From Candidatus Nanogingivalaceae bacterium (lineage in GTDB: Bacteria > Patescibacteriota > Saccharimonadia > Saccharimonadales > Saccharimonadaceae): a DNA stretch of 32,000 bases. Where the stretch lies: NCBI GenBank assembly GCA_015257795.3, contig CP072208.2, positions 630,001 through 662,000 on the forward strand. Direction: 5' to 3'. Of this stretch, positions 6,698 to 21,649 are shown piece by piece. The stretch's first letter is position 1, and every line of letters begins with the position of its first letter. The position numbers and the translations under genes were made by a program. Under the pieces are notes generated by a model. It was not told the origin of the DNA and ran no database searches. It saw only the letters and a program-made list of their open reading frames with translations.

Positions 6698-7280
6698 CAG
6701 ATTTTCCTTCTTGTTTTTGTTTTATATTTTTATATGTTGTTACCGCAGTCCACTTACCAGATTTAAGATCATTATCACTGATTTTTTTCGAAACAGCCTT
6801 ACAATACTTATTGTTTGGACTTTCTAAAATTTCAGTTGAAAGTTCAATAGTAGTTCCGTCTGTATGGGTTAGAGTATACGAACATTTCCCGTTTCCGTCA
6901 TCATAAAGCAATCCTGAAATTTGTCCAGCAACACGAACTGCACCATCTTCAACTTGAACTGTTGTATAAGTCGGGAAACTGGTATATCCTGATGTATCAG
7001 TAGTTCCTTCTGCACGATCTGTTGTCGTATTCTTGGTTTTTGAATCAATAATCTTTTTTTCAGATTCGTCTTGTTTTTTATTTTCATTTTCAGATTTTTT
7101 TGAATCTGTTTTTTTATCTTCAACCTTCGAAGTTTTTTCTTCTTTTTTATTTTCACTTTTATCGCTCTTTCGTGAATTCATCCACCAAAAAGCTCCGCCA
7201 GCTCCAAGCAGCAAAATAATCGCAACAATTACGAAAGCAATAATTTTAGTTTTTTTAGTATTTTGTCTATTTATTTTCAT
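6669..7280 (-). CDS. Membrane-anchored surface protein with a Lys/Glu/Asp-rich linker and a small C-terminal 2-Cys beta-rich domain
   Basis: N-terminal TM segment IIAFVIVAIILLLGAGGAFWW, then a low-complexity KSDKSENKKEEKTSKVEDKK linker, then a C-terminal globular part. AGGAG SD. The gene overlaps the next gene by 29 nt. Confidence 0.6.
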   Translation of the reverse strand: MKINRQNTKKTKIIAFVIVAIILLLGAGGAFWWMNSRKSDKSENKKEEKTSKVEDKKTDSKKSENENKKQDESEKKIIDSKTKNTTTDRAEGTTDTSGYTSFPTYTTVQVEDGAVRVAGQISGLLYDDGNGKCSYTLTHTDGTTIELSTEILESPNNKYCKAVSKKISDNDLKSGKWTAVTTYKNIKQKQEGKSDAQSFTIEK

Positions 7281-7353
7281 TTTTTCTCCTGAAACAATTT
7301 TATCATAAGCTCAATAAAAAATCAACGTTTTTAAAGTTTTTTTAAACTTTTTA

Positions 7354-7362
7354 TGTTATAAT
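7354..7362 (+). promoter_or_regulatory. Extended -10 box TGtTATAAT, 9 nt upstream of the ATG at 7372
   Basis: Sequence tTATGTTATAATataactactATG. No SD fits in the gap. Confidence 0.5.
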
Positions 7363-7371
7363 ATAACTACT

Positions 7372-8337
7372 ATGAAAAAACTCATCACGATTATGATACC
7401 CGCCTATAATGAGGAAAAAGCTCTACCAAAACTTTTCGAAAGGCTAGATCTTTTAGCCAACAATGTAATAAAATACGATTTCGAATTCCTTTTTATTAAC
7501 GATGGATCAAAAGATCGAACGATGAAAATTATTCACGACCAAAGCGAAAAAGACCCGCGAATTTCATACATCAATTTAAGCCGTAATTTCGGCAAAGAAA
7601 ATGCGATGCTCGCTGGATTTGATTACGCTAAGGGTGATGCTCTAGTGATTATTGATGCTGACCTCCAAGATCCGCCTGAATTAATTCCTGCAATGATCAA
7701 TCTTTGGGAAGATGGCTATGATGACATTTACGCTAAGCGTGAATCTCGTGAAGGTGAAACTTGGCTTAAAAAACAAACTTCGAAATGGTTTTATAATATT
7801 CTTGACACTATTTCACAAATCGAAATTCAACGAGATACCGGAGATTTCCGACTACTCGATCGGCGAGCTGTCGAGGCTTTAAAAACCTTGCGCGAAACAA
7901 ACCGATATACAAAAGGTATGTTTTCTTGGATCGGTTTTAAGAAAAAAGAAATCACCTATAAACGAGACGCTCGTGTTGCCGGCGAAACTAAATGGAATTA
8001 TGCCAAACTCATTAATTTAGCCGTTGAGGGAATCACTAGTTTTACCGTTGCTCCTCTTCGAATTGCAACATTCACTGGAATTCTAATTTCAATAGGTGCA
8101 TTTATTTGGATTGCTTTCTTGGTAATTCGGCCTCTTTTTGGTGTACCGGTTGGAAACGGTTATGCTTCAATTATGTCTGTAATTCTATTTCTAGGTGGCA
8201 TTCAGCTTCTTTCGATTGGTATTCTTGGTGAATATATTGGCAAAATTTTTATTGAATCAAAAAATCGACCAGTTTATCTAGCGCAAGAAATCAAGGAGTT
8301 TAAGCGTGAAAAATCTACTAAAAAAGCTCAAAAATAA
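7372..8337 (+). CDS. Polyprenyl-phosphate glycosyltransferase (GtrB/CsbB/ArnC family, GT2)
   Basis: IMIPAYNEE, FINDGSKDRT, IIDADLQDPPE, GDFRLLDRR motifs, plus two C-terminal TM helices typical of the family. Confidence 0.85.
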   Translation: MKKLITIMIPAYNEEKALPKLFERLDLLANNVIKYDFEFLFINDGSKDRTMKIIHDQSEKDPRISYINLSRNFGKENAMLAGFDYAKGDALVIIDADLQDPPELIPAMINLWEDGYDDIYAKRESREGETWLKKQTSKWFYNILDTISQIEIQRDTGDFRLLDRRAVEALKTLRETNRYTKGMFSWIGFKKKEITYKRDARVAGETKWNYAKLINLAVEGITSFTVAPLRIATFTGILISIGAFIWIAFLVIRPLFGVPVGNGYASIMSVILFLGGIQLLSIGILGEYIGKIFIESKNRPVYLAQEIKEFKREKSTKKAQK

Positions 8338-8734
8338 CCAAGCTTTCTGGTTCTCGATAATTGGTGGAATTAATACAGCACTCGACTTTATAATTCTTTT
8401 TGTTTTAACATCTTTTGGTATAAAAATTTTCATTGCGAACATTTTTTCAACTGGGATCACATTTATTATTAGCTTTCTAATGAATAAGAAAATAACCTTC
8501 AAATCTGTTTCGAATAATAAAAAAGAACTTATTCACGAAATGGTTTTATTTATTCTCGTAACTCTTTTTGGACTTTGGGTTATTCAAAATATTGTCATCT
8601 CAACCACAATGCCAATTTTCGAAAACTTACTTAAAAATAAGCGAATATCATTATTACTATCAAAACTTATTGCTACTATTTTCAGTTTAATTTGGAACTT
8701 TATACTCTATAAAAAAGTAGTCTTCAAAAAATAA
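8306..8734 (+). CDS. GtrA-family small membrane protein (putative lipid-linked sugar translocase)
   Basis: 142 aa with four hydrophobic segments, following a GtrB-like gene. GTG start, with AAGGAG 6 nt upstream. Confidence 0.75.
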   Translation: MKNLLKKLKNNQAFWFSIIGGINTALDFIILFVLTSFGIKIFIANIFSTGITFIISFLMNKKITFKSVSNNKKELIHEMVLFILVTLFGLWVIQNIVISTTMPIFENLLKNKRISLLLSKLIATIFSLIWNFILYKKVVFKK

Positions 8735-8767: not shown

Positions 8768-9490
8768 CTAATTACTGAAAAATTGTCTTGCTCGTTCTGT
8801 TTTTGGATTATCCATAACTTCAGATGGCTTCCCATCTTCAATAATTACACCTTTATCTAGAAAAATCATCCTTGTACCAACTTCTCGGGCAAATTTCATC
8901 TCGTGCGTAACAATAACCATAGTCATCCCTTTTTCAGCAACCTCTCGAATAACATCAAGAACTTCACCAATCATTTCAGGGTCGAGGGCAGAAGTTGGCT
9001 CATCAAAGAGCATAATTTTCGGCTCCATTGCTAGAGCTCGCGCAATTGCTACACGCTGTTTTTGACCACCTGATAAACTATTTGGCATCGCTTTAGCTTT
9101 ATTTAACAAACCGACGTCATTTAATAGTTCTCTAGCTTTTTTGGTGATTGCCCTATCTGAAACTTTTCGAAGTTTTTTAGGTGCCAGCTTGATATTTTCG
9201 ATCACACTATAGTTCGGAAAAAGATTAAACTGTTGAAAAACCATTCCAACTTCTCTTCGCAACTTATTTAAATCAGTTTTCTTATCGGTAATTTTTACGC
9301 CATCAACAATAATTTCTCCCGATGTCGGTTCTTCAAGTAAATTCAAGCATCTCAAAAATGTCGATTTTCCCGAGCCGCTCGAACCAACGATAACGACAAC
9401 TTCGCCTTCCTCAATATCAATATCGATATCTTTTAAAACATGATTAGAACCGTAATTCTTTTTTAAGTTCTTAATGCTAATTATTTTCAT
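8768..9490 (-). CDS. Polar amino-acid ABC importer, ATP-binding protein (GlnQ/HisP-like)
   Basis: Walker A GSSGSGKST, signature LSGGQKQRVAIARAL, Walker B MLFDEPTSALD, H-loop VTHEM. Confidence 0.9.
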   Translation of the reverse strand: MKIISIKNLKKNYGSNHVLKDIDIDIEEGEVVVIVGSSGSGKSTFLRCLNLLEEPTSGEIIVDGVKITDKKTDLNKLRREVGMVFQQFNLFPNYSVIENIKLAPKKLRKVSDRAITKKARELLNDVGLLNKAKAMPNSLSGGQKQRVAIARALAMEPKIMLFDEPTSALDPEMIGEVLDVIREVAEKGMTMVIVTHEMKFAREVGTRMIFLDKGVIIEDGKPSEVMDNPKTERARQFFSN

Positions 9491-10181
9491 TATCTAATTT
9501 CCTCTCAACCTTTGACATAATTCGTGTAAAAATCGCTGTTAAAGCAAGATAAATCAAAGCAGCTGCAAAAAGTGATTGAAACGCAGTTGAAGTTTGGAAA
9601 CGAATATTATCCGCACCACGCATAATATCGCTTAAACCAATCCAACCGACAATTGAGGTTTCCTTAAGCAATGCGATAAATTCACTAATAAGTGGCGGTA
9701 ACGAATTTCGAAACGCTTGCGGCAAAATTACTAGTCGCATAGCTTGCCAATTACTAAAACCTAGCGAACGAGCAGCTTCCGTTTGTCCCTTATCAATACT
9801 TTCAATTCCCCCACGAATAATCTCAGCAATATAAGCTCCCGCATTTATTCCAAAGGCGATTGCTGCCGTGAAAATTTTTGGCATGAATTGATACGAACCG
9901 AACACAACATAATACATAATTAAAAGCTGTACAAGTAAAGGTGTTCCGCGAATAATATCTACATAAATTTTTCCCAAAAAAGCTAACGGATTGAACTTTG
10001 CTAATTTCTTATTTTTTGAATTTCGAAATGGCTGAAAATTCGATGTTCGCATTAAGGCAATTAAAACACCAATAATCGAACCTAAAATTACTGAAAGTAC
10101 CGTTAATACGAGCGTAACTTCTAAACCTTGCCAAAGAAAAATCCACCGATTTCCGCCAAAAATTACTTCCCAAAAATTCAT
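9477..10181 (-). CDS. Polar amino-acid ABC importer permease (His/Glu/Gln/Arg/opine family)
   Basis: Multi-pass membrane protein with the EAA-type loop (TEAARSLGFSNWQAMRLVILPQA). Overlaps both neighbouring genes. Confidence 0.85.
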   Translation of the reverse strand: MNFWEVIFGGNRWIFLWQGLEVTLVLTVLSVILGSIIGVLIALMRTSNFQPFRNSKNKKLAKFNPLAFLGKIYVDIIRGTPLLVQLLIMYYVVFGSYQFMPKIFTAAIAFGINAGAYIAEIIRGGIESIDKGQTEAARSLGFSNWQAMRLVILPQAFRNSLPPLISEFIALLKETSIVGWIGLSDIMRGADNIRFQTSTAFQSLFAAALIYLALTAIFTRIMSKVERKLDNENN

Positions 10182-10966
10182 TTTTCACTCACTTCATTAA
10201 AATACTTTTTAACCAATTTCTGATATCGACCATCTTTTTTCATCTCAGTAATAACTTTATCCACCTGATCTTTCAATTCATTATTATCTTTTTTTATAGC
10301 AACTGCATATTCTTCATTACTCAAGGAATCTGGTAAAATTTGTAAATTTGAATATCCATGAACATATTGATTAGCGGGAGCCTCATCTAAGACCGCTGCA
10401 TCAATTTTTCCAGAGCTCAAATCTTGCAGAACGCTTGGGACTGATTGTAGTTGAGTTACGCTAACGCCTTTAATTTTCGAAACGATCGTATCACTAGTTG
10501 TCCCTAATTGAACACCAATTTTATTTCCCGAAAGCTCATATTTGTTTCGAATTGTTGAACCTTTACGAACAACAATTTTTTGTGCCGCAGAATAGTATGA
10601 TTTCGAAAAAGAAACATTTTTCTCACGTTCGGGAGTTTTTGTCATTCCCGCAATAACCATATCTACTTGTCCAGTTTCTAGAGCAGGAAGAAGTCCATCA
10701 AAGCCCATATCTTCAACTTTTAGTTCTTTTCCTAAACTTTTTGCAACCTCCCGTGAAAGATCAATATCAAATCCAACGACTTTTCCGTCTTGAATATATT
10801 CAAAAGGTTTAAAACCGGCATGCGTCCCAATAACCAAAACGCTCTTTCGATCACCGATAGTCCCTTCACGATATAAAATATCTATTAACATTAAAAAAAT
10901 AGCTGCAATAAAAATAAAAATTCCTGCTAGCCAAATAAAATTACTTCTTTTTGCTACACCTTCCAT
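10178..10966 (-). CDS. Amino-acid ABC importer substrate-binding protein (family 3), membrane-anchored
   Basis: N-terminal TM anchor, then the family-3 pattern: PFEY...G.VVGFDIDL, LLPALETGQVDMVIAGMT. Confidence 0.85.
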   Translation of the reverse strand: MEGVAKRSNFIWLAGIFIFIAAIFLMLIDILYREGTIGDRKSVLVIGTHAGFKPFEYIQDGKVVGFDIDLSREVAKSLGKELKVEDMGFDGLLPALETGQVDMVIAGMTKTPEREKNVSFSKSYYSAAQKIVVRKGSTIRNKYELSGNKIGVQLGTTSDTIVSKIKGVSVTQLQSVPSVLQDLSSGKIDAAVLDEAPANQYVHGYSNLQILPDSLSNEEYAVAIKKDNNELKDQVDKVITEMKKDGRYQKLVKKYFNEVSEK

Positions 10967-12488: not shown

Positions 12489-12842
12489 CTATTTATTACA
12501 ATAAAAATCAGCTTCTTTAAAGGTGTTGACTAAAGTCTCTTTCAATTCTTCATGGGGAATATCTTTAACGCTTTTATGAAAAATCAAAACCACAACATCA
12601 AAAGTCCCATCAATTTTCGGTAGTTCATTTCGAATAATTTCATAAACTCGCCGACGAATTCGATTTCGGCCAACCGCACTTTTTAATACCTTTTTCGAAA
12701 CTACCACAGCAAAACGTGAGTCTTTTCGCCGTTGGTTTTTTGTAAATTTTACAACAATTTTTTGTGTTCGAACCGAATTTCCATTCGCATAAACATACCG
12801 CAAACTGCCATGACCGTGAAACCTATTTTTATAAGATAACAT
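12489..12842 (-). CDS. rnpA: Ribonuclease P protein component
   Basis: 117 aa, basic, with the RNR-type motif AVGRNRIRRRVYEI. Located upstream of yidC. Confidence 0.85.
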   Translation of the reverse strand: MLSYKNRFHGHGSLRYVYANGNSVRTQKIVVKFTKNQRRKDSRFAVVVSKKVLKSAVGRNRIRRRVYEIIRNELPKIDGTFDVVVLIFHKSVKDIPHEELKETLVNTFKEADFYCNK

Positions 12843-12852
12843 AACTTTTTAT

Positions 12853-12881
12853 ATTTTAGCATTTTTTGATAAAATTAGCAA
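12853..12881 (-). promoter_or_regulatory. Promoter TTGCTA-17-(TGc)TAAAAT, 10 nt upstream of the rnpA ATG
   Basis: Reverse strand reads TTGCTAattttatcaaaaaaTGcTAAAATataaaaagttATG. Confidence 0.5.
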
Positions 12882-12920
12882 ATTAAAACGAGCTCATGCT
12901 GAACCCGTTTTTAAAGCTTA

Positions 12921-13535
12921 TTATAAGTTTACAATAACTTTTTTATTTGACCAGAATGATGGTTGGTAGTGAAGCTTTATTTGAGAACCTGCAGGAACCT
13001 CAAAAATCATAGAACCAGTCTTTTTACCACCTTTTACTAGATCCCCAGAACCAAGGCTATCTGGCAAACTGTATGTTTGTCCATCCGCGCTCTCAGCAGC
13101 ACCGTTAGAATCTTCAGCTTTAAATTCAAAAACGTTATAGCTCATTTCAGTTTCAGATTTATTTTCAATCTTTACTGTAACCTTTACATATTCTTTGCCA
13201 TCTTTTGGCTTCATATAGGTATTTCCAGAATCCCAATTTCGCTCAACCTTTTCAACAGTTAATTCTTTTCCATCAAAAGCAATTATATCGCCAACCTTAA
13301 ATTCAGTTTTTTCTTCTTTCTTGGGTTCATTATTCTGAACTTGAGATGATCCATTTGATCCAGAGTTTTTATTTTCGCCAACTTTTTCAGCCCGTTTAGA
13401 TTGACTACCAATAAGCACAACAAATACAACCACAATAACCCAAAACCAAGCTTTTTTATAGAACGGTTTCCCTGATTTAGTTTTTGCTAACCGTTTTTCA
13501 TCCTTAGATTCTGTAGCCAGCTTTTCTTCTTTCAT
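12921..13535 (-). CDS. Membrane-anchored DUF4352-like surface protein
   Basis: N-terminal TM segment WFWVIVVVFVVLIG, a low-complexity linker, then a beta-sandwich pattern: FKVGD...TVEKVER...KEYVKVTVKIENKSETEMSYNVFEFKAEDSNG...KTGSMIFEVP. Confidence 0.75.
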   Translation of the reverse strand: MKEEKLATESKDEKRLAKTKSGKPFYKKAWFWVIVVVFVVLIGSQSKRAEKVGENKNSGSNGSSQVQNNEPKKEEKTEFKVGDIIAFDGKELTVEKVERNWDSGNTYMKPKDGKEYVKVTVKIENKSETEMSYNVFEFKAEDSNGAAESADGQTYSLPDSLGSGDLVKGGKKTGSMIFEVPAGSQIKLHYQPSFWSNKKVIVNL

Positions 13536-13574
13536 TAGAACTCCTTTTATAAAATTTTAATTTATTATGTAATA

Positions 13575-13608
13575 ATTTTACCCCCCCCCCCCCGATATAC
13601 TTTGTCAA
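13575..13608 (-). promoter_or_regulatory. Candidate promoter TTGACA-(22 nt including G13)-TAAAAT for the DUF4352-like gene
   Basis: Reverse strand reads TTGACAaagtatatcGGGGGGGGGGGGGTAAAAT. A ~40-nt leader with an AAAGGAG SD follows, before the ATG at 13535. Confidence 0.45.
13581..13593. repeat. Homopolymer C13 (G13 on the coding strand of the downstream gene)
   Basis: Read directly from the sequence: 13 consecutive C. Confidence 0.95.
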
Positions 13609-13627
13609 TAGCAAAAAATAAAAAAAT

Positions 13628-13656
13628 GGTACAGAACCTTAAATGAATTCTGTACC
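13628..13656 (-). terminator. Rho-independent (bidirectional) terminator after copA
   Basis: 9-bp stem GGTACAGAA/TTCTGTACC, flanked by an A-run on one side and a T-run on the other. Confidence 0.7.
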
Positions 13657-13672
13657 ACTTTTTTTATTGAGT

Positions 13673-15895
13673 CTAATCAATTTTCGCAACATTGAGAAGC
13701 AGCGAGCTAGTCAAAACAGACAAAGAACTAAGGGCCATAGCAAGACCTGCTAGTTCTGGATTGAGGGTCAATCCCAGTCCTACAAAGACTCCAGCAGCAA
13801 TTGGAATCCCAAGGAGATTGTAGATAGAGGCCCAGAAGAGATTGAGTAAGATCCTGCGGAAGGTCTTTTGACTCATGTCAAAGGCGCGCACAACGCCAAG
13901 CAAATCATTTTGCGTGAGCACGATGCCACCGGACTCGATCGCAATATCCGTTCCAGATCCCATAGCGATCCCCACATCCGCGATCGAGAGAGCTGGAGCA
14001 TCATTGATCCCATCTCCAACAAAGGCGACCTTGCTATCTTCTTGCAGTTTTTGGATGGCGCTAGCTTTTTCTTGAGGAAGGACATCAGCAATGACGGTGT
14101 CAATTCCCACTTGCTTAGCAATAGCTTGGGCCACCCGTTCATTATCCCCCGTTAACATGACCGTTTTCAAGCCCCGTTCTTTGAGCTTTTTGATCGCTTC
14201 TTTTGAGCTGGCCTTCGGAGCATCTTGAATGGCAATCAAGCCAATCACTTGCCCATCCACAGACAAACTGATCACTGTTTTGGCCTGCTCTTGCAAGTCT
14301 ACCATCCGTTTTTCAAGCTCCGGATCCATCGCTGTCCCGTCATGAAGTTTGCCATTTCCCAAGGTCACCAACTGCTGGTCGATCTGACCTTGGACCCCTT
14401 TTCCTTCAATCGCTTGGAAGTTTTCCACAGGGGATAACACCAAACCTTTTTCTTCTGCTTGGGATAACACCGCTTGGGCTAGTGGATGTTCTGAAAAAGT
14501 TTCAAGACTAGCAGCCGGTGTCAAGACACGCGCTTCATCTCCTACAACATCGGTTACAAGTGGTTGGCCAATGGTAATGGTCCCTGTCTTATCAAACACC
14601 ACGGTTTGAATCTTTTGCACTTCTTGAAGAACTGTTCCATTTTTAATCAGAACCCCCATCTTGGCACTACGGCCGGTTCCGACCATCAGGGCTGTTGGGG
14701 TTGCTAAACCAAGGGCACAAGGACAGGCAATAATGAGGACAGAGACTGCATAGAGCATGGCCTCTTGAAGCGACGCGCCCAGAAGCACGGACCAAACCCA
14801 GAAAGTCGCAATGGCCAAAATCGTCACCACTGGAACAAAGATACCTGAAATCTTATCCGTCAAATCTTGAATAGGAGCACGACTGGATTGGGCCATTTTG
14901 ACAAAGTCCACAATTTGAGATAAGAGGGTCTCACTACCGACTTTTTCAGCCTTAAAGAGAATGGTCCCATTGCTGTTGATAGTGGAGCCGATCACTGCAT
15001 CACCAACTGATTTTTCCACAGGCAAGCTTTCACCTGTCACCATCGACTCATCAATGGTCGTACTTCCTTCTACAATCGTCCCATCAACCGCAATCTTTTC
15101 CCCAGGACGGACCCGAATCAAGTCACCAATTTGGATATCTTCTGCCGCCACCTCGACATAGTTCCCATCACGGAGAACTTGAGCCGTTTTTGCCTGCAAA
15201 TCCAACAATTTTTCCACAGCCTCGGAGGCATTGTTACGCATCCGTTCTTCAAAGATTTGCCCTAAGAGGATAAAGAAGATGATAAAACCCGCAGCCTCAA
15301 AGTATACTGGCTGACCAGTAAAAAGGGCAAATACACTATAGACATAGGCTACCAGGGTTCCAAGAGCTACCAAGGTATCCATATTGGAATGGTGCTTCTT
15401 AAATGAGGCCCAGGCACTCTTGATAAAAGGTACTCCTGCTACCAACATGATCGGCGTTGTCGCTAGAAAAGCCCCCCAGCGACTGACTGGATGGGAGACA
15501 AATCCTGCCCACATCCCAATCATCAAGATCAATAAAGGAAGGGTAAAGATACTAGTAATCCAAAAGCGACCCCGTAAATTTAAGACACGACGGCGTTTTT
15601 CCACAACCGTGTAGGAACCCTTTTGCATCTTCATTCCACATGAAAACTCGAAGTCCCCTGTTTCTGTCGGGGTAAAGGATATCACCTTATCCACACCGAC
15701 TTCCAAAGGCTCTAAAATCCCCTGATCTTCAAACAAAATTTCCTTGTAACAGCCGGAAGGATTGACCCGATGGAAGGTGATTTCAGCAGGGATCCCTTTT
15801 TGAAGTTGAAATTCCTTTGGACTATAGCCTTTTTCTGCTGTAATACGGATCTTTTGCACTCCGTTTTCCACAACTGCTTTTTGTTTTTCTACCAT
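13673..15895 (-). CDS. copA: Cu(I)-exporting P1B-type ATPase with an N-terminal cupredoxin-like metal-binding domain
   Basis: TGES, CPC ([13 protein letters not shown]), [27 protein letters not shown]. The N-terminal ~100 aa lack a CxxC HMA motif and instead carry C49...C86-G-M88-K-M90, as in the pneumococcal CopA metal-binding domain. Confidence 0.95.
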
Positions 15896-15905
15896 ACCTA
15901 CTCCT

Positions 15906-16277
15906 TTATTTCACAATCATGTGACCATGCATCATGTTCATTCCACATGAATACCCATATTCGCCCGCTTTTTCTGGCGTAATTTCAATGACATGTTTTT
16001 CACCTAAAGGCAAATCTTCATGAACACCAAAATCTGGAAAGATCACTTGATCCAGACATGAAGATGGATCCTTGCGATTAAAGATGATCCGGGCTGGAAC
16101 ATTCTTTTTCAGGACAATGGTTTCAGGCGAATAGCCCCCCATGACTTCGACTTCAATTTCTTGATAACCTGATTTCTGACGAGCGTGGCCGCTTACCTTT
16201 TCATGCTCTGCAAAGAACCACCAAGCAATAAAAGCAACCACAAGTAAACAAACAATACTAATCAACAATCCAAACAT
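15906..16277 (-). CDS. cupA: Membrane-anchored cupredoxin-like Cu(I) chaperone CupA
   Basis: 123 aa, with an N-terminal TM helix. Cys74, Cys111, Met113 and Met115 ([11 protein letters not shown]) sit at the positions I recall for Streptococcus pneumoniae CupA. Paralogous to the CopA N-domain and located immediately upstream of copA. Confidence 0.85.
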
Positions 16278-16321
16278 GGAATTTCCTTCTTTCTATTACA
16301 TACAATTGCAATGAATCGTTT

Positions 16322-17548
16322 TTAATCTCGTTTAAGCATCACAGTAAAAGCTTCACTCGGAATTTCAACATTTCCAAATTTCTTCATTCGCTTTTTACCA
16401 CGTTTTTGTTTAGCCAGCAATTTCTTCTTTCGAGAAACATCACCACCATAAAGATAGCCCGTCACATCTTTTCGATAAGCTGAAATGTTTTCGCGCGCAA
16501 TGAATTTTCCACCGATTGCCGCTTGAATTGCCACCTGGAAGTTTTGCCGCGGAATCACTTCTTTCAATTTTGCAGTAATCTCGCGACCCATTCGCACACT
16601 CTCCGAACGGTGACACATCACTGAAAGCGCATCAACCATTTCGCCCGCAACATAAAAATCTACTCGCACTAAATCTTCTGCTAAATAATCCCAAAGCTCA
16701 TAATTAAATGAACCGTAACCCGACGTAACACTCTTAAGCTGATCGTAAAAATCGGTCAAAAGATTCGCAAGCGGTGCTTCAAAAGAAATCAAAACACGTT
16801 CATCAATATAACTCAAGTTTTTCTGTAAGCCACGTTTCGAAACAATTAATTGAATTACCGCACCAACATAATCTTTTGGCACCACAATTTCGCCCTTAAT
16901 CCACGGCTCACGAATTTCAGAAATTCTTGTTTGGTCTGGTAAATCAGCTGCACTCTTAATATCTAATTCTTCACCTGTTGTTAAAATTACATGATAGTCA
17001 GTTGAAGGGTTAGTAATCACTAGATCTAGATTATATTCTCGTTCCAAACGCTCACGAACAATATCCATATGAAGAAGTCCAAGAAAACCAATTCGTATAC
17101 CAAAGCCCAAAACTGGCGAATTTTCTGGCTCAAACTGCAATGCAGAATCGCTCAAGCTTAGCTTTTCGACTGCATCTTTCAAATCTTGATAATCTTCGTT
17201 CGAAACTGGGAAAAATCCCGCATAAACAAACGGCTGAACATTCTGGTATCCCGGTAAAGGTTCATTAGCGGGGTTTTTCGAAAGTGTTACAGTATCACCA
17301 ACCTTCGCCTCGCGCGTGGTTTTCAAGTTTGTCACGATGTAGCCAATTTCTCCAGCCCCCATTTTATCGTATGGCGTCATTTTTGGCTGAAGCTTACCAA
17401 TTTCGAGTGCTAAGCCTTTCGAATCGGTTGCCATCATTTTAATTTCATCACCCTTTTTCAATTCACCCGAAAAAATCCGAACATACAAAATTACACCGCG
17501 ATAATCATCATAATAACTGTCAAAAATCAAAGCTTTTAGTGGTTTCAT
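16322..17548 (-). CDS. lepA: Elongation factor 4 (LepA), domains II to C-terminus, as a separate ORF
   Basis: PLKALIFDSYYDDYRGVILYVRI... aligns with LepA directly after the G domain. The LepA-specific C-terminal domain is present. Confidence 0.9.
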   Translation of the reverse strand: MKPLKALIFDSYYDDYRGVILYVRIFSGELKKGDEIKMMATDSKGLALEIGKLQPKMTPYDKMGAGEIGYIVTNLKTTREAKVGDTVTLSKNPANEPLPGYQNVQPFVYAGFFPVSNEDYQDLKDAVEKLSLSDSALQFEPENSPVLGFGIRIGFLGLLHMDIVRERLEREYNLDLVITNPSTDYHVILTTGEELDIKSAADLPDQTRISEIREPWIKGEIVVPKDYVGAVIQLIVSKRGLQKNLSYIDERVLISFEAPLANLLTDFYDQLKSVTSGYGSFNYELWDYLAEDLVRVDFYVAGEMVDALSVMCHRSESVRMGREITAKLKEVIPRQNFQVAIQAAIGGKFIARENISAYRKDVTGYLYGGDVSRKKKLLAKQKRGKKRMKKFGNVEIPSEAFTVMLKRD

Positions 17549-18099
17549 TAAATCTCCTTTGGTGATGGTATTCTTTCAATCACCGCATTCAAAACTTCTT
17601 CAACACCCATTCCTGTTTTGGCTGAAATATGTAAAATCTCGCTTTCATCACACCCTAAAAGATTAATAACTTCTTTCGAAACTCGTGGAATATCTGCAGC
17701 CGGTAGGTCAATTTTATTTAGCACAGGAATGATTTTCAAATCAGCCGCTATCGCAAGATAAACATTTGCGAGTGTTTGAGCTTGAATTCCCTGTGAAGCA
17801 TCTACAACCAAAATCGCACCCTCACAAGCTTGAAGTGAGCGCGAAACTTCATAAGAAAAATCCACGTGTCCTGGGGTATCAATTAAGTTTAGCTCAACAC
17901 CTTTCCAATTCATTGTTACTGGAGCAAGCTTAATAGTGATTCCTTTTTCCCGCTCCAAATCCATCGAATCCAAAAGCTGCGATTTCATGTCACGTTTTTG
18001 AACTGTACCTGTAATCTCCATCATTCGATCAGCTAAAGTTGATTTACCGTGATCAATGTGCGCGATAATACAAAAATTTCTAATATTTTTTAAATCCAT
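17548..18099 (-). CDS. lepA: Elongation factor 4 (LepA) GTPase domain, as a separate ORF
   Basis: G1 [10 protein letters not shown]3 DTPGH, G4 NKID. Ends ...ERIPSPKEI-stop, and the stop overlaps the next ATG (TAATG). Confidence 0.9.
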
Positions 18100-18110
18100 A
18101 AACTTTCAAT

Positions 18111-18139
18111 ATTTTAACATATTTATAATAGTTGAGCAA
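18111..18139 (-). promoter_or_regulatory. Promoter TTGCTC-17-(TGt)TAAAAT, 11 nt upstream of the lepA ATG
   Basis: Reverse strand reads TTGCTCaactattataaataTGtTAAAATattgaaagtttATG. Confidence 0.5.
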
Positions 18140-18143
18140 ATTT

Positions 18144-19775
18144 TTATTTAATCTTAATCTGTACAAAGAATATTTTCTTAACTTGCGCAATTATCGGATC
18201 GGCTTCTTTAAGTTTTAATAATTTTGCAGCCAAAACATAAACAGCAGAACTCACGGCTCCGATAAATACGAATTTTGGAAATATCGAGAAGAATCGTAAA
18301 TCTGAGCCCAAAAGAGGCATCTTTGCCACCAAAAGATAACACACAAAACCAGAAAAAGCACTTGCAACGAACATTCGCCCAACCCCTAAAACAAATTGTG
18401 CGTCAAAAAGTCCATCAATTCTTTTGCGCATCAAAAATAGCAAAATTGCAATTTCAAGAACTGCACCAATCGCTTGAGCCCAAGCTAACCCGTAAGCACC
18501 AAACTTAAAAATTAAACTGAAGACTATCGCCAAAGCAATATTTAGACCAATCGCAACTAGTGAGATATAGAATGGCGTTTTCGTATCTTCCATTGCATAA
18601 AAACTCCTTGCTGCAATATGATAAATCGAACGCGCAAAAATTGAAAGAACAAGAACTCCCAAAAGTCCAGCAATTAAATCATCACCACCGTTTTTAATAA
18701 AGCTTACAATGTAGCCACGCAAGAAAAAGAATAAAACCGAAACTGGCAAAGCCAAGAAAATAATCATTCGAAGAGCGGCTTGTAAATCTTTTCGAAAGAG
18801 GTCTTTTCGCCCAATCGCTAATCTTTCAGTTAAATTTGGAAAAAATGCCGTAGAAATCGCAACACCAATTAAGTTTACTGGCATCATTTGAAGGGTTAAG
18901 CTCTGCGAATATGCACGCACCGTTCCCGAACCCATTCGGCTGGCCATATTAGTTTCGACAATTGAATTAACATAATCCAAACCTTGATCCATTGAGCGTG
19001 TTGGCAGTAGTTTCATAACCTGTTGAAAGCCTCTATTTCGCCAAAAAATTCTAAATTGATATTTAAAGTCAACACCAATTAGTCCAATTGCCGCAATCAA
19101 AAGCTGGAGAACAGACCCGAAAGCCACACCAATCGCAACGCCCATGATTCCACCTTCGAAAACCTGAACGCCAAAAATATTTATACCATTCGTAAAAAAT
19201 ACTGTTCCAATAATAATACCAATATTATAAATTGCTGGTGCAAGAGCCGAAAAAGTAAACCTTCCTATAGCTTGTTGAATACTTGTAAGTACCGTCGCAA
19301 TAGCAAAAAGAAAGGGATTGATTGCAATCACGCGCATCATTGAAATTGCCAAAGATCGTGAAGACTCACTTAATCCTGGCCCAACAATATATTTAACTAG
19401 AGGTTCAGCAAAAATAATAATCAAAACTGAGGTTATAAGTGTTAACAGGGCTAATAAATTAAGAACACTCGTGCTTAATTCCCATGCAGATTTTTTATTT
19501 CGATTCGCCATTCGCTGATTAAATACAGGAATAAACGTAACACTTAATGCACCCGAAACCAAAATAAAAAACATAAAATCAGGAATCGTGAATGCGACAG
19601 TATAAGCATCAATTCCATCAGGGTAAGAATCTAGATAATACGAGTTTAGCAACCTGTCACGCAAAAAGCCCAACAAGCTCGACAAAAGAGTCGAGCTCGC
19701 AAGAATGATCGCTGCAAATTTAACCGTTAACCGCGAATTTGCTTTCGAAACAATAGATCGAACTTTAGATTTCAT
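18144..19775 (-). CDS. murJ: Lipid II flippase MurJ (MviN family)
   Basis: 543 aa with about 14 TM segments. The N-terminal LGFLRDRLL...AFTIPDFMFFILVSGALSVTFIPVF pattern is typical of MurJ. Confidence 0.9.
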   Translation of the reverse strand: MKSKVRSIVSKANSRLTVKFAAIILASSTLLSSLLGFLRDRLLNSYYLDSYPDGIDAYTVAFTIPDFMFFILVSGALSVTFIPVFNQRMANRNKKSAWELSTSVLNLLALLTLITSVLIIIFAEPLVKYIVGPGLSESSRSLAISMMRVIAINPFLFAIATVLTSIQQAIGRFTFSALAPAIYNIGIIIGTVFFTNGINIFGVQVFEGGIMGVAIGVAFGSVLQLLIAAIGLIGVDFKYQFRIFWRNRGFQQVMKLLPTRSMDQGLDYVNSIVETNMASRMGSGTVRAYSQSLTLQMMPVNLIGVAISTAFFPNLTERLAIGRKDLFRKDLQAALRMIIFLALPVSVLFFFLRGYIVSFIKNGGDDLIAGLLGVLVLSIFARSIYHIAARSFYAMEDTKTPFYISLVAIGLNIALAIVFSLIFKFGAYGLAWAQAIGAVLEIAILLFLMRKRIDGLFDAQFVLGVGRMFVASAFSGFVCYLLVAKMPLLGSDLRFFSIFPKFVFIGAVSSAVYVLAAKLLKLKEADPIIAQVKKIFFVQIKIK

Positions 19776-19777
19776 AA

Positions 19778-21649
19778 TTAATCGTGAAGTTTTGCTTCCT
19801 TAGGCAATTTAGCATCTTTCAAAATTTCTGCAACCTCTTTTTCGTCTAGAGTTTCTTTTTCAAGAAGCGCATCCGTTAAAGCTTTAAGCGGTTTTTTATT
19901 CGCTTTGAGAACAGCTGCAGCACGTTCAACAGCTTCTTTAATTAACTTAGCGATTTCAGCATCAATTTTTTCTGCTGTTTTTTCAGAATATGGTCGTTCA
20001 CGAGTCATCTTATCAAAAAACATTCCCGAATTTTCCTCATGAAATACTTGGTCAAGCAAATCTTCACCCATTCCAAATTCAATAACCATATTACGTGCGA
20101 TATCTGTTGCATTTCGAAGATCGCTTGAAGCGCCTGTTGAAATTCCAGCCTCGCCATAAATCAACATTTCAGCCTGACGTCCACCCATTGCGCGCGCCAA
20201 GATATCTTTATATTCGAAAATATTTGTATAACTTCGATCTTCTGGCGGCAAGAACCATGTTACACCACCGGTTCCACCACGCGGAATAATCGTAACCTTA
20301 TGAACTGGATCTGAATCTGGTAAAACATGTCCAACAACAGCGTGGCCAGCTTCGTGCCAAGCAGTAGTTTCGCGCTCTAGATCGCTCATTACTTTTGATT
20401 TTCGTTCTGGGCCGATGGCTACTTTTTCGAAAGCTTCCGTAAGATCATCGTTAGTAATAACATCTCGGTTATTTCGAGCTGCCAAAATAGCTGCTTCGTT
20501 CGCAATATTCGCAAGATCGGCACCAGCAGAACCAGCTGTCTTTTTAGCAAGCGCATTTAAATCTACTGAATCATCAACTTTTTTATTCTTGAAATGAACT
20601 TTCAAAATTGCCAAACGATCTTTTCTTTCAGGAAGAGCAATTTCAACACGACGGTCAAATCGACCAGGTCGCAAAAGAGCTGGATCAAGAACATCGGCAC
20701 GGTTTGTTGCTGCAAGAACAATAACACCAGTATCTTTTTCGAAACCGTCCATTTCAACCAAAATTTGGTTCAAAGTCTGTTCGCGCTCATCGTGACCGCC
20801 ACCCATTCCTGAACCACGTTTTCGACCGACAGCGTCAATCTCGTCAATAAAGATAATCGCAGGCGCATTCTTTTTAGCTTTCGAAAATAGATCTCGAACA
20901 CGTGAAGCACCGACACCAACAAACATTTCCATAAATTCTGAACCAGAAATCGAGAAGAAAGGAACTTTAGCTTCACCAGCAACTGCACGAGCAAGCATTG
21001 TTTTACCAGTTCCTGGATTTCCAACCATCAAAACACCACTCGGGATTTTCGCACCCATTTTTTGATATTTTTTAGGATCTTTTAAGAAATCAACAACTTC
21101 GTATAGATCTTGTTTTGCATTCTCATTTCCGGCAATATCTTCAAATTTAATCTTTTTCTTATCATCGCCATAAATTTTTGCTCGAGATTTTCCAAAGTTC
21201 ATAGCTTGCGAATTCTGGCCGTTTGCTGAACGCATCATTAACATCAATAAAGCTACAATCGCAATAATTGGAACGATCATAATTGCCAAATTCCATAAAA
21301 TCTCTGAAGTGTTATCTGCTGGGAAAACATTAACAGTAGTCTTTCCTTTTTCAAGACCTTGTTCATAAATTGTACCAGCTTCTTTTACAGATTTTTCAGT
21401 TGGTTTTTTCTCACCTTTTTTAGTAACTTTTACATCATTTCCTTGAATTTCAATTTTCGAAATTTCGCCCTTATTAGCACGAGCAATCACATCTGAAATC
21501 GGAACATCTTTCAATCTAGCTGAGAAAAAATTCTGGCTAGACCAAAATACGCCTAAAATAATTGCGATAACAATCGCCCAAAAAAAAGTATTTCCCGCCC
21601 GTTTCGCAAAATTATTCTTCTTATTATCTTTCATTCTGTCCTTTCTCAT
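19778..21649 (-). CDS. ftsH: ATP-dependent zinc metalloprotease FtsH
   Basis: Walker A GNPGTGKT, Walker [12 protein letters not shown] region, and Zn site HEAGHAV. The track's start at 21655 is a TTG that abuts the SD. The ATG at 21649 lies 6 nt after GAAGGAG and is the more likely start. Confidence 0.93.

Follow-up and report, generated by a model that had tools for sequence, protein, structure and literature searches.

The closest described counterpart of the locus reported here is the copY-cupA-copA operon of streptococci, including pneumococci. Its gene order, ribosome-binding sites and terminator are the same as in the cassette described below. The proteins are also alike: pneumococcal CupA has a membrane anchor and the residues C74, C111, M113 and M115, pneumococcal CopA has a cupredoxin N-domain with C49, C86, M88 and M90, and the cassette proteins share all of these.

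The cassette itself lies in a member of the G6 Saccharibacteria (HMT-870). These bacteria are abundant in the human mouth and have the smallest genomes among Saccharibacteria. To our knowledge they have never been cultured, and we know of no host for them. Streptococcal DNA has been found in this clade before. The G6 genomes JB001 and JB003 contain a prophage-like element of ~10 kb that derives from Streptococcus, with ~95% identity (Baker 2021, PMC8386444), and on the strength of this element streptococci have already been proposed as neighbours or hosts of G6 (PMC8386444).

The window analysed here is a stretch of 32,000 nucleotides. It is nearly identical to the closed nanopore genome JB003 (CP076102), and the genes flanking the cassette are of the G6 type. 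The G6 genome has a size of 0.69 Mb.

The gene pair and its proteins

All genes of the locus are on the minus strand. In the direction of transcription, its features are:

16322..18099, minus strand: lepA (EF4), the native gene upstream of the cassette, present as two ORFs
18099..17548, minus strand: lepA ORF 1, 183 aa, GTPase domain (Pfam GTP_EFTU)
17548..16322, minus strand: lepA ORF 2, 408 aa (Pfam GTP_EFTU_D2 / EFG_C / LepA_C)
16312..16321, minus strand: left-junction filler AAACGATTCA, 10 nt between the lepA stop and streptococcal DNA, at the place of the native lepA terminator
16296..16311, minus strand: copY remnant TTGCAATTGTATGTAA, 16 nt from the very end of the gene, with codons for ..CNCM plus the stop
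16278..16295, minus strand: streptococcal copY-cupA spacer, including the cupA ribosome-binding site AGAAGGAA
15906..16277, minus strand: cupA, 123 aa, by sequence match a membrane-anchored Cu(I) chaperone of cupredoxin fold
13673..15895, minus strand: copA, 740 aa, a P1B-1 Cu(I)-exporting ATPase with a cupredoxin-like N-terminal metal-binding domain
13620..13664, minus strand: streptococcal intrinsic terminator of the cop operon, 19-bp stem and T-run
13609..13626, minus strand: right junction by microhomology, in which one T-run comes from the streptococcal terminator and the other, with ATTTTT, from the native lepA terminator region, the two being merged
13575..13608, minus strand: promoter-like element of the downstream DUF4352 gene, native, bounding the cassette and outside it

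The split of lepA into two ORFs is common to all G6 loci examined. The promoter-like element of the DUF4352 gene consists of TTGACA (13608..13603), a spacer with a G13 tract (13593..13581) and TAAAAT (13580..13575).

CupA matches the Pfam family Cupredoxin_1 (8e-25; 87 bits against a cutoff of 27), and its residues 31-122 match the solved CupA structures PDB 4F2E/2MRY (E=4.8e-47). Its set of Cu(I) ligands is complete. The translation reads as hydrophobic throughout residues 1-22, the N-terminal membrane anchor. CopA consists, by Pfam search, of an N-terminal Cupredoxin_1 domain followed by E1-E2 ATPase and HAD domains, and the same search finds no HMA domain. It scores 624 bits against TIGR01511 (cutoff 397) and 635 bits against TIGR01525 (cutoff 346). 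It matches the structure PDB 3RFU (E=7.5e-170), and residues 2-99 match the N-domain structure PDB 4F2F (E=6.9e-44). In addition to the four metal residues of the N-domain, the P1B-1 and catalytic motifs CPC391, DKTGT435, YN692, MALSS720, TGES287 and GDGINDAP627 are all present. The paralogy between cupA and the N-domain of copA is the sole long internal repeat of the cassette.

These results agree with a first-pass annotation of the window, made from the sequence alone. It had described a 123-aa protein of CupA type with a TM anchor and the ligands Cys74/Cys111/Met113/Met115, all of which are found and now joined by a structure match. It had also described a CopA in which a cupredoxin-like N-domain (C49, C86-G-M-K-M) takes the place of a CxxC HMA domain, in keeping with the residues and the Pfam result.

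The predicted role of CupA is that of a Cu(I) chaperone at the membrane, with its Cu(I) going to the cupredoxin-like N-domain of CopA. As a predicted P1B-1 ATPase, CopA would pump Cu(I) out of the cell. By homology, the cassette would confer copper tolerance. The proteins are ordinary CupA and CopA, and their biochemistry is not new.

Streptococcal origin and the insertion site

The composition of the cassette is foreign to its surroundings. GC is 0.43-0.48 over 13.5-15.5 kb against ~0.31-0.38 on either side. GC3 is 0.47 in copA compared with 0.20-0.35 in native genes, and the observed/expected ratio of CpG is 0.67 in the cassette compared with 1.31 in native sequence. For the hexamer TTCGAA, shuffles predict 25.5 occurrences in the window, which has 87; the cassette has none, although 8.0 would be expected at native density (P about 3e-4). 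Both the raised G+C of the block and its lack of TTCGAA had been pointed out beforehand; the counts bear this out, and the comparison of GC3, CpG and TTCGAA separates the cassette from native genes. As a signal specific to the hexamer, the TTCGAA excess was rejected, since it does not stand out from a maximal-order Markov expectation. The excess resides in the TCGA core and its T/A context, and TTCGAA is thus used as a compositional marker only.

Cassette DNA is 98.4-99.2% identical to the cop operon of S. parasanguinis, S. vestibularis, S. salivarius, S. cristatus and S. sanguinis. The CopA proteins of S. salivarius, S. vestibularis and S. parasanguinis share 98-99% of their amino acids with that of the cassette. 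The mitis-group orthologue is far less similar (~69-70% in DNA, 73-74% in amino acids). Homology to streptococci spans 16311..13645, and in S. vestibularis it reaches 13613, so the limits first given for the block, 13610-16321, are right within 10 nt.

Relatives of the host provide the state before insertion. In L090-L093, L106-L110 and L112, the lepA TAA is followed by a terminator hairpin and then by the DUF4352 promoter. These empty sites lack the filler AAACGATTCA and have AAGAGGTTTTCGAAAGCCTCTTTTTT at that place, and in the window their lepA terminator hairpin is replaced by the cassette. The filler is identical in the window, L048, L066 and L113-L117. Streptococcus and L048 both have the sequence of the copY remnant TTGCAATTGTATGTAA, unchanged, at the 3' end of their copY, and the hairpin after copA is the same in Streptococcus. 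The right junction was defined by comparing the window with streptococcal and empty-site sequences.

Its foreign composition, the empty sites of relatives and the nearly identical donor sequence mark the cassette as a horizontally acquired island. It is a recent and clear gene transfer between very distant bacteria, from oral streptococci. The earlier annotation had called it a Streptococcus-type cupA-copA cassette, transferred into a reduced low-GC genome within a shared, perhaps oral, niche, and had proposed a search against Streptococcus and relatives of the host. The 98-99% nucleotide identity matches the first part, and a recipient in an oral clade, nearly identical to JB003, matches the second. 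The search returned near-identical streptococcal DNA, together with sister genomes of which some have the cassette and others are empty.

The cassette might instead be native to G6, having been inherited vertically or donated from G6 to streptococci. For instance, several G6 species hold it at the same site, and between the window and L113 the cassette diverges by 5.3%, about as much as the flanks (4-5.5%). Against this stand the foreign composition and the intact empty site, terminator included, of relatives with 93-97% identical flanks. G6 copies also keep relics of streptococcal neighbours: one is the copY 3' end, another a fragment that matches streptococcal sequence from upstream of copY. 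Likewise, spxB adjoins the cop operon in every streptococcal locus compared, even in S. mitis, where the cop allele is only 69% identical. A native origin is extremely improbable. Simple vertical descent, named earlier as the reading that could overturn a transfer, does not hold: sister copies are foreign in composition and other sisters are empty.

A chimeric assembly is another way to place streptococcal DNA in such a contig. In this case an assembler would have joined contaminating streptococcal reads to a Saccharibacteria contig. Short-read contigs of relatives (L094-L097, L100-L102, L104, L105) do end exactly at the cassette edges, indicating that the region is hard to assemble from metagenomes. 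The authors of JB003 also caution that conserved regions are corrupted when metagenomic reads are used for Pilon polishing. However, the run of lepA stop, AAACGATTCA and copY remnant is present in no streptococcal locus. The order lepA-cupA-copA-DUF4352 recurs at 99.8-100% identity in the nanopore-assembled CP076102 (JB003). The same arrangement is found in ERZ2610407, ERZ28636038, one HMP sample, one JGI sample and Logan assemblies, and five further metagenome contigs carry it too. Because the lepA-cupA junction is seen in a closed long-read genome and in independent assemblies from separate studies, it is not a chimera, and the misassembly that the first reading wished to see excluded falls away. 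The specific loss of the native terminator from the window, derived structural variants of the same junction in sister lineages, and private substitutions in the window allele (4 bases never found among 62 streptococcal copies) point the same way. The chimera has next to no probability left and is effectively refuted.

No flanking repeats or target-site duplication are seen at the cassette edges, and neither the ORF list nor the Pfam search contains a transposase or integrase. This is what had been expected from the letters. The cassette replaced the native lepA terminator through illegitimate joins of the microhomology type. From the absence of mobile-element genes and the anatomy of the junctions, we infer that natural transformation, with uptake of streptococcal DNA, would be the likeliest route. 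Natural competence has been demonstrated in Saccharibacteria (PMC10633639).

Transcription, copY and spread within G6

The start of cupA lies 44 nt downstream of the lepA stop. No terminator-like site is found between the two genes, and a single strong terminator (13664..13620) follows copA. A consensus scan finds no promoter in the 44-nt spacer or the 3' end of lepA, although weak non-consensus promoters could escape it. Over positions 12800-20000 (7.2 kb), 21 promoter-like matches compare with 15.9 +/- 3.9 in shuffles, which is not above chance. The cop box TACAnnTGTA is absent in and near the cassette and occurs only twice in the window, at 4467 and 11986. With copY reduced to its last 16 nt and no cop box, the locus in the window lacks both the repressor gene and the operator of a CopY-regulated operon.

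Upstream of cupA there is neither a copY gene nor a cop box, promoter or terminator, so the gene pair most likely shares the transcript of lepA and escapes regulation by copper. It would form the tail of the lepA transcript, which would stop at the imported streptococcal terminator, and its expression would be constitutive and blind to copper. The main points of this reading had been anticipated. The loss of copY and of a full cop box, the 44-bp distance and the lack of a terminator before cupA were all found as described, and the suggested read-through from lepA is strengthened by the empty-site relatives, which have the lepA terminator exactly where the cassette sits.

Some sister loci differ in this respect. 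L048, L066 and L113 contain an intact copY (CopY TIGR02698, 171 bits) together with cop boxes. The box TACAAATGTA lies upstream of copY in L048 and L063. The copY-bearing G6 lineages have the same lepA-cupA junction plus the cop promoter and intact copY. In the favoured account, a second recombination with streptococcal DNA would have restored promoter and copY in some lineages, and would have left the original copY-less junction behind as a 29-nt relic. The copA of L113 is represented by two ORFs (408 and 375 aa), owing to either a frameshift or an assembly indel, and is not claimed as a pseudogene.

The opposite order has a real but somewhat lesser chance of being right. In that order, the window lineage descends from an ancestor with the complete Pcop-copY-cupA-copA now seen in L113, L048 and L066, and copY was deleted between the two 29-nt direct repeats. 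The copY-bearing form is found in all three G6 species groups, including L113 and L115, whose lepA is 94-95% identical to that of the window. The copY-less form is seen only in the shallow clade of the window (at least 96% identical), and the missing 800 bp are exactly bracketed by the repeat. However, position 4 in the left copy of the repeat is T in all copY-bearing forms (TTGTAATTG) and C in the window, as in the right copy, so the deletion crossover would have to fall within the first 3 nt. The copY-bearing form also holds the relic of a copY-less junction, so that a copY-less state must have come earlier under either order. On whether the copY-less form is primordial or derived, its distribution and the C/T marker give opposite answers.

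The cassette has also moved within the clade. An identical filler junction is shared by three groups of G6 species whose mutual identity is 84-87%, and at least two of these groups also have empty-site members. To the right of the cassette, 200 nt of L048 are 95-99% identical to the group of the window and only 74-90% identical to the relatives of L048, after which the pattern flips. The cassette thus travelled from one G6 species to another, through homologous recombination of the lepA and DUF4352 flanks. The left junction of L019 is different, so at least one extra event is needed.

The account as a whole therefore begins with capture of a promoter-less cupA-copA pair after lepA. The native terminator was replaced and the pair would be transcribed as a lepA tail; spread through G6 followed, and in some lineages a regain of copY. 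We hold this sequence of events to be very probable.

The interior of the cassette may in addition have been overwritten repeatedly by streptococcal recombination. This reading, which is a little more probable than its negation, complements the account above and does not replace it. Repeated overwriting is proposed as the reason why G6 copies track the streptococcal allele pool. They are monophyletic in 0/100 bootstraps. L048 groups with S. cristatus alleles in 100/100 and shares 26 sites with them against 5 with the window, and a cristatus-like allele was found again in another sample of the L048-type species. The nearest relative of each G6 copy is a streptococcal allele and never another G6 copy, the closest allele being a coarse measure with one streptococcal genome per species. 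Most variable sites of G6 copies are polymorphisms also present in streptococci, the L113 cassette is pieced together from segments, one of them divergent and L071-like, and identity changes in sharp steps at the cassette edges. However, L019, L048, L066 and L103 are short-read metagenome assemblies, and reads of the far more abundant streptococci may have entered the shared 2.7 kb, in assembly or in polishing. The interleaving of G6 and streptococcal alleles suggests continuing exchange, with an assembly artefact as the other possibility.

A more tentative proposal, which we would put somewhat below an even chance, is that the cassette serves as a standing "homology anchor" for repeated recombination of G6 with live oral streptococci, the locus being traded among G6 as well. 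Such an anchor would explain both the streptococcus-like alleles in the G6 locus and the regain of promoter and copY. If true, it would be direct genomic evidence of routine cross-phylum natural transformation in situ, and would point to H2O2-producing streptococci (S. parasanguinis, S. cristatus, S. sanguinis, S. salivarius) as physical hosts of G6.

Significance and comparison with known systems

The gene pair, with its ~99% identity to streptococcal DNA, offers a concrete clue to the host of G6. Together with the streptococcus-like element already known, it suggests intimate contact between G6 and streptococci and uptake of their DNA. The locus shows how so small a genome can gain a function without mobile elements: a terminator is hit, a transcript is borrowed, and the insert brings its own terminator. 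It also illustrates the later addition of regulation, and identifies the lepA-DUF4352 intergenic site as one that tolerates insertions. For future G6 genetics or enrichment culture, copper tolerance may offer a selectable trait.

Among streptococcal operons, the cassette belongs to the allele class of salivarius, parasanguinis and sanguinis, not to the operon of mitis/pneumoniae type. Unlike the streptococcal operon, it has no copY, cop operator or promoter of its own, sits behind lepA, and is presumably expressed constitutively and not induced by copper.

The ~10-kb element (PMC8386444) has the same recipient species and the same donor genus as the cassette, and a very high identity as well. 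That element resembles a mobile element, with an invertase and VirD4, whereas the cop cassette is an adaptive gene pair with illegitimate joins and no mobility genes. The word "copper" does not occur in PMC8386444, and searches of the literature on copper or CopA in Saccharibacteria G6 found no account of the cassette. Transfers from streptococci to G6 are already known, and the cop cassette is a further example.

The copY-bearing form can be compared with another known process. Homology-facilitated illegitimate recombination during natural transformation has been described in Acinetobacter and S. pneumoniae. The copY-bearing form resembles a product of this process, with one end anchored in the resident cupA-copA and the other joined illegitimately just past the old junction, leaving the 29-nt duplicate. 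It differs from those cases in that the process is here read from sequence, and in that donor and recipient belong to different phyla.

Composition and streptococcal origin of the cassette

The cupA-copA cassette lies among genes that are all on the minus strand, in the order ftsH, murJ, lepA, cupA, copA, DUF4352, rnpA, yidC and jag.

Features of the cassette locus in the window.
18099..17548 and 17548..16322, minus strand: lepA, two ORFs
16321..16312, minus strand: filler AAACGATTCA, 10 nt, in place of the terminator hairpin
16311..16296, minus strand: copY remnant, last 16 nt, TTGCAATTGTATGTAA
After the copY remnant, minus strand: streptococcal spacer and cupA ribosome-binding site
16277..15906, minus strand: cupA, 123-aa cupredoxin protein (Pfam Cupredoxin_1)
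15895..13673, minus strand: copA, 740-aa P-type ATPase (Pfam Cupredoxin_1, E1-E2_ATPase and HAD)
13664..13620, minus strand: streptococcal terminator, after cupA and copA
13535..12921, minus strand: DUF4352 protein

GC content is 0.43-0.48 at 13.5-15.5 kb, compared with about 0.31-0.38 in the surroundings. The GC3 of copA is 0.47 (native genes, 0.20-0.35), and the CpG observed/expected ratio is 0.67 in the cassette versus 1.31 in native sequence. The hexamer TTCGAA occurs 87 times in the window, where shuffling predicts 25.5 +/- 5.1, and is absent from the cassette, for which the native density predicts 8 sites (P about 3e-4).

TTCGAA is 3.4-fold over-represented against dinucleotide shuffles of the whole window, with no site in 12773-16835. 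It is seen in all three codon phases, usually as T-TTCGAA-A, and also makes up the loop of the lepA terminator native to genomes without the cassette. TCGA makes up 17% of all CpG. Methylation-linked mutational bias, an uptake signal or codon context could cause the excess.

Proteins named from S. vestibularis and S. salivarius share 98-99% identity with CopA, and mitis-group proteins 73-78%. When one genome of each species was scanned, this allele class (95-99% amino acid identity) turned up in many species, such as S. salivarius, vestibularis, parasanguinis, sanguinis, cristatus, gingivalis and peroris. DNA homology to streptococci starts at 16311 and extends to 13645, in S. vestibularis-type loci to 13613; over this stretch the identity is 98.4-98.9%. 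The best match over cupA-copA alone is an S. parasanguinis locus, L014 (99.19%). The first-pass annotation had called the block streptococcal in type and unlike its surroundings in composition, and both claims are borne out, the former by this 98-99% identity of DNA and protein, the latter by GC, GC3, CpG and the absence of TTCGAA.

Among the streptococcal cop loci compared (L010-L082, operon at about 5350-8545), the whole operon of about 3.2 kb, from cop promoter to terminator, shows 97-98% identity among S. vestibularis, parasanguinis, sanguinis and cristatus. It is adjoined by spxB; the other flanks are unrelated or about 65% identical between species. The cassette thus represents an allele already circulating among oral streptococci. 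S. mitis has a 69% allele in the same place; one cop allele has thus swept through species of oral streptococci. The S. vestibularis operon has an IS30-like transposase fragment and czcD directly upstream.

The insertion site and its junctions

In other lineages of clade G6 Saccharibacteria, DUF4352 directly follows lepA. At this empty site, the stop codon of lepA (TAA) is followed by a terminator hairpin, which reads AAGAGGTTTTCGAAAGCCTCTTTTTT or a variant, and then by ATTTTTATACTTGACA, nine further nucleotides, a poly-G tract, TAAAAT and the DUF4352 start. The window is without the hairpin and has the streptococcal segment in its place; thus, the insertion replaced the lepA terminator. At the other end, the T-run of the streptococcal terminator runs into native T-rich sequence. 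The insertion brought no promoter and no regulator, and it supplied a new terminator. Because of this arrangement, cupA and copA would be transcribed as the tail of the lepA message, without copper regulation. The 44-nt lepA-cupA spacer reported earlier was recovered, and a cop box, a terminator before cupA and mobility genes are missing, as had been described.

Evidence for the reality of the junctions is provided by other assemblies. The exact CopA and CupA occur in the same context, between lepA and DUF4352, in a 166-kb contig (ERZ2610407), a 246-kb contig (ERZ28636038), a closed genome (CP076102.2, 691,584 bp), an HMP sample, a JGI sample and Logan assemblies. All of them match the window at 99.8-100% identity across both junctions. 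The closed genome, CP076102, is that of JB003, a Saccharibacterium of clade G6 (Candidatus Nanogingivalaceae, HMT-870), and metaFlye was used to assemble it from nanopore reads. A 37-nt left-junction query against JGI metagenome contigs found five more contigs from other projects, and four bases of the window allele are absent from 62 streptococcal copies. A one-off chimera, the artefact that the first-pass annotation had wished to exclude, is ruled out, since both junctions recur in independent assemblies including the closed genome.

Short-read contigs of close relatives often stop exactly at the cassette edges, as would be expected if abundant streptococci in the metagenome have the same 2.7 kb. 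G6 contigs L094-L097, L100-L102, L104 and L105 stop 50-350 bp from the right edge. G6 MAGs will often miss or misplace the cassette for purely technical reasons.

Two neighbouring features were also observed. Upstream of the DUF4352 gene, whose product is a predicted extracellular or anchored protein, a poly-G tract lies between TTGACA and TAAAAT (window 13575-13608, minus strand; compared in the window, L001, L003, L004, L019, L048, L066 and L090-L112). It has 13 G in the window and 9, 10 and 9 in L001, L003 and L004, which are otherwise 99.8-100% identical, and 8-13 in other G6 loci; the TTGACA-TAAAAT spacer therefore measures 17-22 nt. The promoter looks phase-variable, with homopolymer sequencing error as an alternative source of the length differences. 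The second feature is that every G6 locus examined has lepA as two ORFs, a GTPase ORF of 183 aa and another of 408 aa (split at window 17541-17559), joined by AAGGAG..TAATG, a Shine-Dalgarno sequence and overlapping stop/start. In L106-L108 (compared region, L106 1965-4389), a 208-aa T5orf172/MUG113 protein, with a GIY-YIG-type nuclease domain like that of homing endonucleases, is encoded exactly between the halves. This suggests that lepA may be a "gene in pieces": an endonuclease gene would have inserted into it and then disappeared from most lineages.

Movement between species and from streptococci

By their flanking genes, the G6 loci fall into three groups with 84-87% identity between groups: A (window, L094, L113-L117), B (L048, L019, L090, L109, L112) and C (L066, L106). 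Groups B and C have cassette-bearing and empty-site members with flanks 93-97% identical, and their cassette-bearing members have group A's junction. The left junction of L019 is different: lepA ends ..GACTAG, followed by GGTGTA and a longer copY remnant. On the right side of the L048 cassette, the first 200 nt share 95-99% identity with the window but only 74-90% with L048's own relatives L090 and L112; beyond them the pattern is reversed. These 200 nt are a recombination tract: through homologous recombination in its flanks, the L048 locus came from a G6 donor resembling group A.

Two other loci differ among G6 genomes. In the window's group and in L106, jag and gtrA have a three-gene amino-acid ABC transporter (SBP_bac_3, permease, ATPase) between them (window 9477-10966 and about 700 bp below); it is missing at the same place in L090, L048, L109 and L112 of group B, another presence/absence polymorphism. 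Downstream of a glycosyltransferase gene, the window's species has a 758-aa Ricin-B-lectin-repeat protein (L001 19195-21471) and group B a 575-aa LGFP-repeat protein (L090 11625-13352), so that one probable surface or adhesion protein is replaced by another from one G6 species to the next.

The filler junction is shared by L048 (a "Candidatus Saccharimonas sp." MAG), L066 (an "uncultured bacterium" MAG), L113 and L115. In these four, the filler is followed by a 29-nt copy that covers the end of copY and the ribosome-binding site of cupA, then by about 800 bp of streptococcal DNA, and then by cupA and copA. The 800 bp have three parts: two pieces that match DNA upstream of streptococcal copY and from which about 730 bp are deleted internally; the cop promoter and its TACAAATGTA boxes; and an intact copY (TIGR02698, 171 bits). 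Because filler and 29-nt copy precede the copY segment, the copY-bearing form holds the copY-less junction as a relic. A second recombination, with one end anchored in the resident cassette and the other joined illegitimately, would give this relic junction. Alternatively, the window's form may have arisen by later deletion between the 29-nt repeats. This possibility, which falls a little short of probable, agrees with the presence of the copY-bearing form in all three species groups and of the copY-less form only in the window's shallow clade; a C/T marker at repeat position 4 instead favours a primordial copY-less state.

Streptococcal alleles may have continued to enter the cassette. Between the window and L019, L048 and L066, flanks are 83-91% and cassettes 96-99% identical, with the step exactly at the edges. 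The nearest allele of each G6 copy is streptococcal rather than another G6 copy; G6 copies are monophyletic in 0/100 bootstraps, and L048 groups with S. cristatus alleles in 100/100. The same cristatus-like allele recurs in a second sample of the L048-type species. At most sites where G6 copies vary, the variant is a polymorphism also seen in streptococci, and L113 is a mosaic in which a segment comes from a divergent S. parasanguinis allele. That streptococcal DNA has repeatedly converted the resident cassette is considered slightly favoured rather than shown, because most of these loci are short-read metagenome assemblies, in which assembly or polishing could thread streptococcal reads through the shared region. 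Exactly this polishing problem is described by the JB003 authors.

Known transfers and the CupA/CopA system

Transfer of a prophage-like element of about 10 kb from a streptococcus to the same G6 species has been published, with streptococci suggested as a possible host of G6 (PMC8386444). The word "copper" is absent from that paper, and the cop cassette is undescribed in the papers searched on copper or CopA in Saccharibacteria. Natural competence was shown experimentally in another Saccharibacteria clade (PMC10633639). The cassette is a fragment of a known operon that has entered a new host through a process of a known type, and the first-pass annotation holds as a whole, in observation and interpretation. 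Its value lies in very clean junction anatomy, in evidence that genes pass into G6 from streptococci and also from one G6 species to another, and in a testable lead to the host of G6.

CupA matches the solved pneumococcal CupA (2MRY/4F2E; E=4.8e-47) and has a hydrophobic N-terminal anchor and residues C74, C111, M113 and M115. CopA scores 624 bits against TIGR01511, copper-translocating P-type ATPases (cutoff 397), matches Legionella CopA 3RFU (E=7.5e-170) and contains the motifs CPC, DKTGT, TGES, YN, MxxSS and GDGINDAP. Its residues 1-99 match the cupredoxin-type metal-binding domain of pneumococcal CopA (4F2F; E=6.9e-44) and include C49, C86, M88 and M90; Pfam assigns no HMA domain to the copA product. 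The ligand residues first listed for both proteins are therefore present. Judged by sequence, the two are ordinary members of the streptococcal CupA/CopA pair. Since copY and the operator are absent, the cassette falls outside the CopY-regulated operon type, but on every sequence criterion tested its pair belongs fully to the streptococcal CupA/CopA system.
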